Shown in pieces: positions 4,135 to 13,266 of a stretch of DNA of 14,573 bases. Made by a program: the position numbers and the translations under genes. The stretch's first letter is position 1, and every line of letters begins with the position of its first letter. The notes under the pieces were generated by a model. The model did no database searches. It was not told where the DNA came from and saw only the letters and a program-made list of their open reading frames with translations. The stretch comes from a virus (lineage: Duplodnaviria; Heunggongvirae; Uroviricota; Caudoviricetes), in the IMG/VR virus record IMGVR_UViG_2645727715_000004; one strand, written 5' to 3'.

Positions 4135-4550
4135 GCGTTATCGCACTCCACAGATCATCAAAAGAAATCATTACCGGTCCGTCACGACGCCAGAGGGTGA
4201 TACTGTTACCCAGCTCATTAATCCCGGTGCGGCGGATATCCAGATCAATACGGGACACCACGCCGTCATCAGTCATCCATTGGAGGCATTCGCGGATATA
4301 CCCCCTTACTGTCTGCACCAGCTGATTGGTCAGTTTGCTGCGCTGAAGCAGCCACAGTCGGGAGCCGTAACGGTCATTCTGTCACCGCAGGCCAGGTATC
4401 CCCCCACCATCCCATCGGGACGTCGGCGTTGTCATCAGGCTCCGCCCGCCGCCAGGTAAACAGGGAAATCACCACGGCGCGGGTCAGCGGATCCAGCGGT
4501 GCGCTGGCGCAGGTGCGTTTACCGTTCACCGTCAGCCACAGTTCCATCAT
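4121..4550 (-). CDS. Baseplate protein, Mu gp46-like (gp25/GPW-like), interrupted by a frameshift near 4374..4382
   Basis: ATG at 4550 opens a 58-codon frame ending TGA at about 4376; the +1 frame continues (QNDRYGSRLWLLQRSKLTNQLVQTVRGY...) to the stop at 4121. Combined length about 143 aa matches the family. Confidence 0.55.
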
Positions 4551-7559: not shown

Positions 7560-9393
7560 TTACCTGCCAAAGCGCGTATAGCCAACATCATGGCTGACAT
7601 CAAAACCGCTGGATCGCGTTTCCATAACCCGCATACCCGGAGGCGAATTCACAAAAGAGACCTTGATCTCACCATCAACTTTTGGCGCAGAAGCTTTGTT
7701 AATCATGAAGGGATTCGGGCCTGTGGCATCGGAGGCGTTGTTTGATTGAGCCGGATCTACCGCCGGATAAGGTGTGTATCCCCGCGCCGGTATTCCCGTC
7801 CCATAAGCATCATAAGCACCCGCGCCCCACTGCGCAGAGTTAATGGCATCGACCGTGTCACCGGAACTGTCGGTAAACCACTCAATAATTGGCTTCAGCT
7901 TGTCCCACATATCCTGAAACCACTTAACAACCGGTCCCCAGTTATTGATCACTATCCCCAGCGGCGACCAGGCAAAAACCTTCTTAAGAAGTTCCCAGCC
8001 AGCCTCAAAATAAGGACCAATGGTTTCCCAGAGTTTCTTAAAATAAGGTCCGACAACATCCCAGTTAGTGATAATTAATCCCGCAGCCAGGCTATCGCCG
8101 TCGCAATCATGCCAATCGGCGTCATCGACATAATCCTGCTGACAATACTGATGGCACCGCCAACGCCCATCAATCCCAGTTTCAGAATCGCAAGACCGGC
8201 AGCAAGCCCGACGACGCCGCGAATAACCCGGGGATTTTCATCCGCAAACTTCGTGAATTTTTCCCCTAACTCCCCCAGCCATTGCGTGATATTTTTGGCG
8301 TCACCAGAAAATGCGCCGCCAATAGCCGCAAGGCCGTTAGTTGCGGTCCCCGTCATTGCCTCCCACAGGTTGGACAGCGTTCCAAGCTGGGCCTGAACAC
8401 GTTTATTCAGGCTGGCCTGTTTATTCATCTTCTGCTGGATCTGATCGTAGCCATCCTTTCCTTTATCGATTAGTGCATTGACCACCTGAAGGGTTTCGGC
8501 ATCATCACCAAATATTGCCTTAAGTACACCTGTTCGCTTAACGTCTGTCAGTTTTCGCAGCTTTGCCAGTTGCTTAAACATGTTATCAAGACCGCCAAAA
8601 CTCCCTTTGCCGTCAGTAAAATCGAGCTGCACTCCGAGTTTCTGGCGGGCCATGACTTTATTGACGTCCCTGATTTTCTTAACGCTTAATCCGGACTGGA
8701 TAACTTTTCGCAGGGCATTACCTGCCGACTCCCCGTTCATCCCCATCTGATCCATCATGACGCTGATAGGGGCAAGGCTCTGTGCAGCCTGAAGTCCGTC
8801 CTTATTCACCATCTTCAGAACAGAACTGGTTTTAGTGAAGAAGGACAACATGTTGGTATCGTCAACGCCCAGATAAAACGCCTTCTGGATAGTGTCGAAC
8901 AGCCCCATCATGTCTTCTGACGCCGTTCCGGTAGCATCCTGCATCTTTGCAGCAAACTCAGCAGCCGCTTCCGGTGTTTTTTTCAGTTGTACCGCAAGAT
9001 AAGCTGTCGCTTTACCCACACCACCAAGAATGTTTTCTGCCGGGATCCCTGACGCACCAGCATCTGCATCATGTTCTGGAAATCAGCCGTTGTACCGGGT
9101 AGCTGGTTACCCAGGCCAATAGCCAGTTTATTGATGTCCTGAAAGCTCTTTCCAACCTCGCCGTTCGCATCCATCATAGCGACTTTCAGCCCGGTGGCGG
9201 CGTTTTCCTGATCAGCATAAGATTTCAGGGAAAGCGTCAGACCCGCTGCCAGTCCGCCACCAAGCGCCAGCCCACCCTGTGACGCTTCTTCCGCCTGGCG
9301 TTTAAATCCCCGGATTTTCTTTTGCATTTTCGACAGCGCGGGAGAAAGCCTGTCGACACCGGTGATCAACGCCTTAAGCTCAAATTCAGCCAT
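7560..9393 (-). CDS. Tail tape measure protein, interrupted by two apparent 1-nt deletions (about 9042..9054 and 8071..8080)
   Basis: Three consecutive minus-strand ORFs (8983..9393, 8075..9019, 7560..7952) form one roughly 612-codon reading frame if one base is restored at each junction (VRQG|IPAENILGG and WLRD|LIITNW). Shows the hydrophobic segment and W-rich C-terminal repeats typical of tape measure proteins. Confidence 0.7.
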
Positions 9394-11818: not shown

Positions 11819-12379
11819 TCAGGAAGGAAGGGTTATTTCGGTGTGATGTTCGATATCGCCGTCAGGCCCGTTACCGGGATCGAGATAATCAACATCAATC
11901 GCCAGCGTTCGCAGTTCATCCAGACTGTTCAGGTCATCCTGCTGGCGGGTATCGTCTTCGGTCAGCTCGCTGATGACCGAAAAATCGAACTGATAAATCA
12001 GCTCATGACGATTCAGATCCAGCAGCGTGCCGCCGTCATAGGTAATCGGGTTACCGCACGCTTCCGGGTTCCAGCCCAGCAGGGCCTTAAAGAGCATCTG
12101 CCGGACATCGTCCACCACATCATACGAAGCAAACTGACCGCGCTCATCACGCCCGTTACTCAGTATGACAACCACGGAGAAGCCCTCTTTCAGCTCCTGC
12201 CAGTAGTCGGTCTGGCTTTTGTTTTCTCCCGGAGAATCATCACCCGGTACAACATATGCCGCCGGGAGTTTCAGCTTTCCGACCTCCGGCAGATTTTTGA
12301 ACTGGGCCGCGCCTGCAACCCGGTTTTCAAAATACGGACAGCGGGCACGCAGTGCAGCAATAACAGGCGTCAGTTTCAT
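11819..12379 (-). CDS. Putative neck / tail-completion (tail terminator-like) protein
   Basis: 186-aa ORF between the gp10-like neck gene and the sheath; function assigned by position only. Confidence 0.45.
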   Translation of the reverse strand: MKLTPVIAALRARCPYFENRVAGAAQFKNLPEVGKLKLPAAYVVPGDDSPGENKSQTDYWQELKEGFSVVVILSNGRDERGQFASYDVVDDVRQMLFKALLGWNPEACGNPITYDGGTLLDLNRHELIYQFDFSVISELTEDDTRQQDDLNSLDELRTLAIDVDYLDPGNGPDGDIEHHTEITLPS

Positions 12380-12881
12380 CTGTGTCGTCGCTCCGGCTTC
12401 AGTGATTTACGCAATTCCCGCGCCAGAAAATAGCGTGTCCAGCTGCGGTTCTTTTCAAGCGTTTCCACCATGAAGTTATTACGTGGAGCCAGTCGCCAGC
12501 CGCTGCCACCGGATGCACCACGATGATGGCTGCGACGACGCTTTGCCCCTCGCCTCACGCCATAGAACAAAAAAGCCGGATAAAAATCACCGGTGATACG
12601 GCGGTTTCCCTCTCCATTACGCTGGTTAGGGGCTATACGTGCCATAAAACCAGGGCGATGTTTACTGGCTCTGGGTACCATGTAACCAATCGAACGAGCC
12701 AGGCGTCCGGTCTGATAACCGGGGTTTTCACCCGGTGCCGACCGCGCACGGCGCATCACCAGCGACGGGCATCACGCATATGACGCTGACCAATCGTGAC
12801 AAACGCCCGCCGGACACGGGCGCGGTTAAAGCGCATCTCCGCGGGCTGCTGAAAATCAACGTGCAAAAAGGAAGTCGTCAT
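12376..12881 (-). CDS. HK97 gp10-family head-tail joining protein, interrupted by an apparent 1-nt deletion near 12757..12766
   Basis: ATG at 12881 gives MTTSFLHVDFQQPAEMRFNRARVRRAFVTIGQRHMRDARRW then stop; the -1 frame continues as VMRRARSAPGENPGYQTGRLARS... to 12376. Restoring one base makes one roughly 168-aa protein. Confidence 0.55.
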
Positions 12882-13266
12882 TGTTGCCTCCGTGACTCTG
12901 CCCACATTCGCCCAGCTCCGTACACTCCAGCAGCAGAAAGCGCCGCGCCCCGTTCAGATCGCGCTGACGTTTCACCCGGTACACACTGTCACCGCAGACC
13001 ACCTCATAATCAGCGGTGATCCCCCGGCGGTAACGAATGGTGATGTAATGGGTGATGGCGTCCCCGGTCTGCGCGGTTTCCTGCCAGGTGGTGGCACTGG
13101 TCTGGATAACCTTCGCCCATGTCCGGAACGTAACCGGGTATTGAGGCTCCACGCCAAAGTTATCCGCGGGCATATCCACCCGCTGGCGGATCAGGACGCG
13201 TTTATTCAGTTCACCGGGGTCCGGCAGAATGTAGGTTGCGCTGGTCTGCGCCTGACGAATTTTCAT
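12856..13266 (-). CDS. Head closure / head-tail adaptor protein
   Basis: 136-aa ORF following the connector gene with overlapping start/stop; size and position fit. Confidence 0.6.
   Translation of the reverse strand: MKIRQAQTSATYILPDPGELNKRVLIRQRVDMPADNFGVEPQYPVTFRTWAKVIQTSATTWQETAQTGDAITHYITIRYRRGITADYEVVCGDSVYRVKRQRDLNGARRFLLLECTELGECGQSHGGNNDDFLFAR

Follow-up and report, generated by a model that had tools for sequence, protein, structure and literature searches.

The DNA stretch analyzed here (14,573 nt, hereafter the window) is the entire contig LEKZ01000190.1 of the assembly GCA_001038025.1 obtained for E. coli D92/09. It holds the late genes, encoding structural proteins, of an SfV/SfI/SfII-like prophage that combines an HK97-type head and neck with a Mu-type contractile tail. 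Over more than 12 kb, the window showed 97–98% identity to phages SfI, SfII, SfV, and vB_EcoM-689R6 as well as to the prophages of hundreds of complete E. coli genomes. On the head side, the genes of the minus strand encode, in order, the major capsid protein, a 66-aa ORF, the connector (Ad1, PF05135), the head-closure protein Hc1 (PF05521), the neck protein, and the tail terminator (PF23840). The terminator gene is followed by the genes for DUF2635, the sheath, the tube, the chaperone, the tape measure, and the DNA circularisation protein, and then by the baseplate genes gp44–48, the tail fibre, and the fibre assembly genes.

At the left end of the contig, the 3′ end of the gp48-like gene and the 5′ part of the tail-fibre gene occur again in inverted orientation. 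The perfect inverted repeat of 320 nt (100% complementary) is made up of positions 1–320 and 2194–2513 of the window, and two convergent gene sets lie between its arms. The minus-strand set consists of the fibre gene with a Collar domain (2497–1697) and the fibre-assembly gene of the Caudo_TAP type (1697–1095), and the plus-strand set of an ORF at 17–445 and a second Caudo_TAP gene at 611–1123. The stretch bounded by the repeats resembles an invertible tail-fibre segment of the Pin/Gin type. Both of its orientations would have been present in the culture that was sequenced, leading the assembler back into the constant part. In the related prophage of E. coli LD26-1, pinE is situated just downstream.

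The neck gene, the tail-completion (Ne1/TCP) gene of this SfV/SfI-like prophage, lies between the head-closure gene (12856–13266, minus strand), which overlaps its start, and the tail-terminator gene (11819–12379, minus strand), which overlaps its stop. In the window, this gene is divided between two frames of the minus strand. The N-terminal fragment (12756–12881) starts with the ATG at 12881 and comprises 41 codons (MTTSF...RDARRW, with the frame reading MTTSFLHVDFQQPAEMRFNRARVRRAFVTIGQRHMRDARRW) terminated by a TGA at 12758–12756. The body of the gene, with the sequence including VMRRARSAPGENPGYQTGRLARSIGY, is located in the −1 frame, which is open from 12774 (VMRRARS...ERRHR) down to the stop codon at 12378–12376. 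Two start codons are available in this frame, GTG at 12759 and ATG at 12756, giving 127 (12376–12759, minus strand) or 126 codons, respectively. The TGA of the 41-codon piece overlaps the in-frame ATG of the body in the motif TGATG, the A being shared. The 41-aa piece matched positions 2–40 of PHROG 879 (E = 1.5e-16) and the 127-aa body matched its positions 42–168 (E = 5e-70). Since the two pieces match two halves of one family, the layout represents a split gene and not a chance pattern of ORFs. Such an arrangement, with 41 codons from the ATG at 12881 ending in TGA and the body continuing in the −1 frame to 12376, had been read from the letters in the preliminary description, and the frame analysis agreed with it in both respects.

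The same description had proposed that a single base was missing within 12757–12766 and that its restoration would give one protein of roughly 168 aa. Alignment with SfI, SfV, 689R6, and the prophage of an E. coli ST69 strain bore this out. It revealed exactly one gap, with the relatives having CGTCGGCTGG and the window CGTCGCTGG, i.e., a single G at 12763 (minus strand), within the indicated interval, at the place of the GG found in the relatives (CGTC-GG-CTGG). The absence of one G from the pair shifts the frame after codon 40–41 and creates the TGA. In every relative inspected, SfI, SfV, and E. coli included, the intact CDS starts from the same ATG and has 507 nt encoding 168 aa. SfV orf8, SfI gp10 (YP_009147456), and E. 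coli WP_000213502 correspond to the gene of the window (96.8–99.8% DNA identity, the same locus and neighbours). Unlike SfV orf8 and SfI gp10, the window gene lacks one G at 12763 and is split into parts of 41 and 126/127 aa.

In all 1,016 complete E. coli records holding the site, the copy most similar to the window had the GG pair, as did phages SfI, SfII, and SfV. When an 80-nt fragment of the window centred on the site was used as a query, none of the 1016 complete E. coli records was identical and all differed by exactly this gap. The region of 530 nt was otherwise identical to the E. coli ST69 and FCI48 copies (99.8%, the one gap being the difference). A gene with no substitutions beside the gap gives no indication of age or relaxed selection. 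Exact scans did not find the deleted 26-mer in the viral and metagenome collections, nor, in the species-representative genomes, a 45-mer spanning the deletion. Contigs with the intact 27-mer numbered at least 120 in the viral collection, at least 120 in the metagenome collection, and three in the genome collection. Among 222 public copies, eight (3.6%) had an ORF of a length other than 168 codons, whatever the cause. An exact 27-nt match to the neck gene of the E. coli/Shigella prophages was also noticed in the draft genome of the Edwardsiella hoshinae type strain NBRC 105699 (NZ_BAUC01000041.1), which could be due to a shared prophage or contamination.

A rival reading holds that both frames are used deliberately: programmed −1 ribosomal frameshifting or transcriptional slippage would restore the full protein, or termination–reinitiation at the overlapping UGAUG would give a functional protein in two pieces. 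Given the TGATG overlap, both pieces are in principle translatable, and only two to three residues (RLV) would be lost between them. However, the overlap of the frames at 12774–12756 (GAT GCC CGT CGC TGG TGA) contains neither an X_XXY_YYZ heptamer nor a homopolymer run. More than 1000 relatives have the gene in one frame, which makes the two-frame layout derived rather than conserved. Moreover, the break falls in a conserved stretch, in which R39 is invariant and R40 nearly invariant, and at the point where the long N-terminal helix (residues 20–44) is predicted to end. Programmed −1 frameshifting and transcriptional slippage were consequently rejected, the slippery motif being absent and the layout not conserved, and intentional expression of the two frames in any of these ways is considered highly improbable. 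We regard as just as improbable the variant in which the deletion is real and recurrent, having occurred in three different SfV-like prophage backgrounds, and the neck protein is made as polypeptides of 41 and 126 aa that still assemble, thanks to UGAUG. If true, it would provide a naturally split and tolerated form of an essential neck protein.

The source of the sequence bears directly on the interpretation of the gap. D92/09 is a Shiga-toxin-producing E. coli strain sequenced on the Ion Torrent PGM platform with a 314 chip (399,241 reads, 16.5× coverage), and its draft genome comprises 343 contigs with 5,893 CDS in 5.08 Mb (PMC4588619). Comparison of 13.5 kb of the window with the prophage of E. 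coli LD26-1 revealed no indels other than four one-base events, each breaking an essential structural gene. For E. coli, 5,893 CDS in 5.08 Mb is a high number, as expected when genes are split. In addition to the lesion in the neck gene, and in comparison with all the relatives examined, the tape-measure gene (minus strand) carries two deletions, GGGG to GGG at 9047–9049 and CCC to CC at 8090–8091 (both on the coding strand), and the baseplate gene gp46 (minus strand) has an insertion at 4383, GGT-ACAG to GGTGACAG, which cuts it to 57 aa. The tape-measure gene is thus represented in the window by ORFs of 136, 314, and 116 aa, whereas in the relatives it is intact and encodes 611 aa. When the four indels were undone, intact genes were regained for the neck protein (168 aa), the tape measure (611 aa), and gp46, and no nonsense codon, larger deletion, insertion sequence, or other lesion was found after this repair. 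The frameshift products of the tape-measure and gp46 genes of the window were not found on any other public contig.

The comparison with SfI gave the same four indels and one gap of 29 nt at the window position of approximately 13520, a place where LD26-1 has no gap. Compared with the window and the E. coli prophages, SfI has an insertion here (2554–2582), resembling a local duplication, in its head–tail connector gene. The RefSeq annotation of SfI is devoid of the connector gene gp08, which suggests a frameshift or an error in the SfI record.

The density of indels in the contig is approximately 1 per 3.4 kb, and in three cases out of four the event is a G/C deletion within a short homopolymer. 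Bragg et al. (2013) reported "high-frequency indel" errors of the PGM, mostly single-base, at approximately 1 per 1–2 kb of the reference. In their data, 82% of strand-asymmetric PGM indels occurred in homopolymers of length 2–3 with C/G deletions dominating, and the indel errors recurred between runs above chance and produced frameshifts in assemblies (PMC3623719). The events in the window resemble these errors in being single-base G/C deletions in homopolymers of 2–4 nt at a density within expectation (PMC3623719). Unlike typical PGM errors, one of the four events is the insertion of a G outside a homopolymer.

The 41-aa product arises only via this particular G deletion and is on record on two other contigs. 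One of them, Logan DRR003228_189 (2,037 nt), shares the G deletion and differs from the window by 17 mismatches. It has a second deletion, CCC to CC in the head-closure gene, 400 nt away (contig positions 1163 and 1569), and is otherwise identical to GG-bearing prophages of several complete genomes, among them that of the type strain ATCC 11775 (= JCM 1649). This pattern looks like a flow-based sequencing error. The other contig, Logan ERR14334500_5549 (7,852 nt), has the same G deletion at position 1742 and 167 mismatches to the window, and it represents a different prophage variant. Here the G deletion is the sole indel relative to LD26-1, the tape-measure gene is intact, and the best matches among complete genomes are 99.9% identical over the full length of this clean contig. 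If ERR14334500 consists of Illumina data, its deletion is probably real and the site would be one of recurrent mutation. The frequency of the altered site among the very numerous public copies, approximately 1e-5, would fit rare genuine mutations as well as platform errors that recur; hence, recurrence alone does not discriminate between them.

Two further groups of contigs came up in the look-up of the exact products. Five contigs from five other samples begin 0–1 nt upstream of the internal ATG (equivalent to window positions 12757/12756). A site-specific break at this ATG was considered but not favoured, as such starts do not fit a GG/G bubble in the assembly graph and there are many partial products of other lengths. 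The five starts were judged to be chance contig ends, selected by searching for the exact product. The contig Logan SRR13364281_134 was likewise dismissed as a case of the same event, since its 126-aa product results from a deletion fusion upstream and the GG pair is intact. This heavily deleted relative lacks several tail genes, and at its positions 600–740 a portal/terminase-like ORF continues directly into the neck gene at codon ~24. It represents either a genuine remnant of a decayed prophage or a chimera produced in short-read assembly.

Taken together, the split of the neck gene is probably an Ion Torrent PGM base-calling or consensus error, in which one G of a short homopolymer was under-called in the 16.5× draft, and we infer that all four indels of the window are errors and not mutations. 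The artefact is favoured because the contig comes from a low-coverage PGM draft and contains three other one-base indels, because the repair of the four leaves no other lesion, because the deleted version is rare and the gene otherwise undiverged, and because the parallel case of DRR003228 carries a second homopolymer deletion. The base rates point in the same direction. The other three indels (approximately 1 per 4.4 kb) predict approximately 0.12 error indels per 507-nt gene, to be set against the 3.6% of altered public copies. Three observations speak against the artefact: the clean ERR14334500 contig shares the deletion, GG is a 2-mer and not a long homopolymer, and the neck site recurs elsewhere, unlike the lesion products of the tape-measure gene and gp46. 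In the real DNA of D92/09, the neck gene would most likely be intact and encode the usual 168-aa protein.

The opposite reading takes the deletion as real, so that the D92/09 prophage would possess a null or split tail-completion gene and be defective, producing particles that fail in head–tail joining or DNA delivery, as is known for TCP mutants of lambda, SPP1, P2, and Mu. On this reading, the deletion also arose separately, or spread by recombination, in no fewer than two other backgrounds of the prophage. The identical deletion in three assemblies with different prophage alleles fits this reading, as does the ERR14334500 contig, with no other indel relative to LD26-1 in 7.8 kb. Disrupted copies do exist at a few per cent, as the eight of 222 public assemblies' copies demonstrate, and the phages defective in tail-completion proteins (TCPs) are non-viable (PMC11099176), so the allele would mark a cryptic prophage. 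Nevertheless, we consider a real mutation unlikely. The sequence derives from an Ion Torrent assembly of low coverage in which three other one-base indels lie nearby, the gene shows no accompanying substitutions, and one of the two other carriers has a second homopolymer deletion close by. Furthermore, none of 1016 complete genomes and none of at least 240 metagenome or viral copies carries the deletion, and no local DNA structure that would make the site a hotspot was found. The candidate structure was a hairpin or quasi-palindrome with the arms CAGCGTC...GTCGCTG, which the deletion makes more symmetrical; it was discarded, as the intact and the deleted 50-mers folded no better than their shuffles (z ~0.2).

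By analogy with the known TCPs, a real deletion would be expected to render the prophage defective, adding one more cryptic SfV-like prophage devoid of infectivity. As the contig belongs to a low-coverage Ion Torrent draft, the four single-base frameshifts in the window should not be taken for pseudogenes or recoding sites without support from reads. The biological importance of the split itself is small, the gene being an ordinary one and the lesion a probable artefact.

The neck gene itself was characterized at the level of protein families. PHROG 879, "tail completion or Neck1 protein", was matched over the full length (positions 2–168 of 168, E = 4.7e-94). The gene order in the window, i.e., PF05135 connector, PF05521 Hc1, neck gene, and PF23840 terminator, parallels that in HK97 (Ad1, Hc1, gp10, and terminator), and it is the order Ad1–Hc1–Ne1–terminator (Tc1) that defines Ne1 (PMC4362835). 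Neither the intact homologue nor the two fragments from the window matched PF04883 at E ≤ 1 (the gathering score of this family is 21.4 bits and HK97 gp10 itself scores 47 bits). Only one of 31 close family members matched PF04883, with E = 0.072. A profile search of 1.84 billion representatives yielded 175 relatives, and 23 of the 109 distant relatives that were aligned matched PF04883 at E ≤ 0.01 (best 3.6e-6), which was the sole recurrent family.

In hhalign, the alignment of the relatives matched HK97 gp10 weakly (E = 4e-4, probability 35%) and over 35 columns, confined to the FYxxF..G..P..F segment. No NCBIfam model was matched by the protein, and the PDB, searched by sequence with the protein alone and with two profiles, returned nothing useful. 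The AlphaFold2 model was poor (mean pLDDT 59), and Foldseek found no fold match for it in the PDB. Its fold matches in BFVD, mostly to proteins named HK97 gp10 family, were below the threshold (E = 0.13–5). By eye, a P-x-x-TG-x-L-x-x-[SN] motif following the N-terminal helix is common to the neck protein and HK97 gp10.

The label "HK97 gp10-like", given to the gene at the outset, therefore stands in part. The distant relatives, with 23 of 109 matching PF04883, and the gene order speak for it; a direct match to PF04883 was not obtained and the hhalign similarity to HK97 gp10 was weak. We conclude that the product belongs to the tail-completion/Ne1 superfamily as a divergent member, whereas its membership in Pfam PF04883 itself is unproven. 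The SfV orf8 family, annotated as "hypothetical protein" in the RefSeq E. coli genomes, can now be placed in this superfamily on the basis of the gene order, PHROG 879, and the intermediates linking it to PF04883.

The tail-completion/Ne1 superfamily comprises SPP1 gp16.1, lambda gpZ, HK97 gp10 (the PF04883 reference), P2 gpS, and Mu gpG. SPP1 gp16.1, lambda gpZ, P2 gpS, and Mu gpG help to form the connector-binding end of the tail and are needed for DNA delivery, and TCP mutants of SPP1, lambda, P2, and Mu are non-infectious (PMC11099176). With its 168 aa, the neck protein of the SfV/SfI-like prophages falls inside the size range of the superfamily (56–231 aa). It differs from the siphovirus proteins of this kind in belonging to a myovirus with a Mu-like tail.
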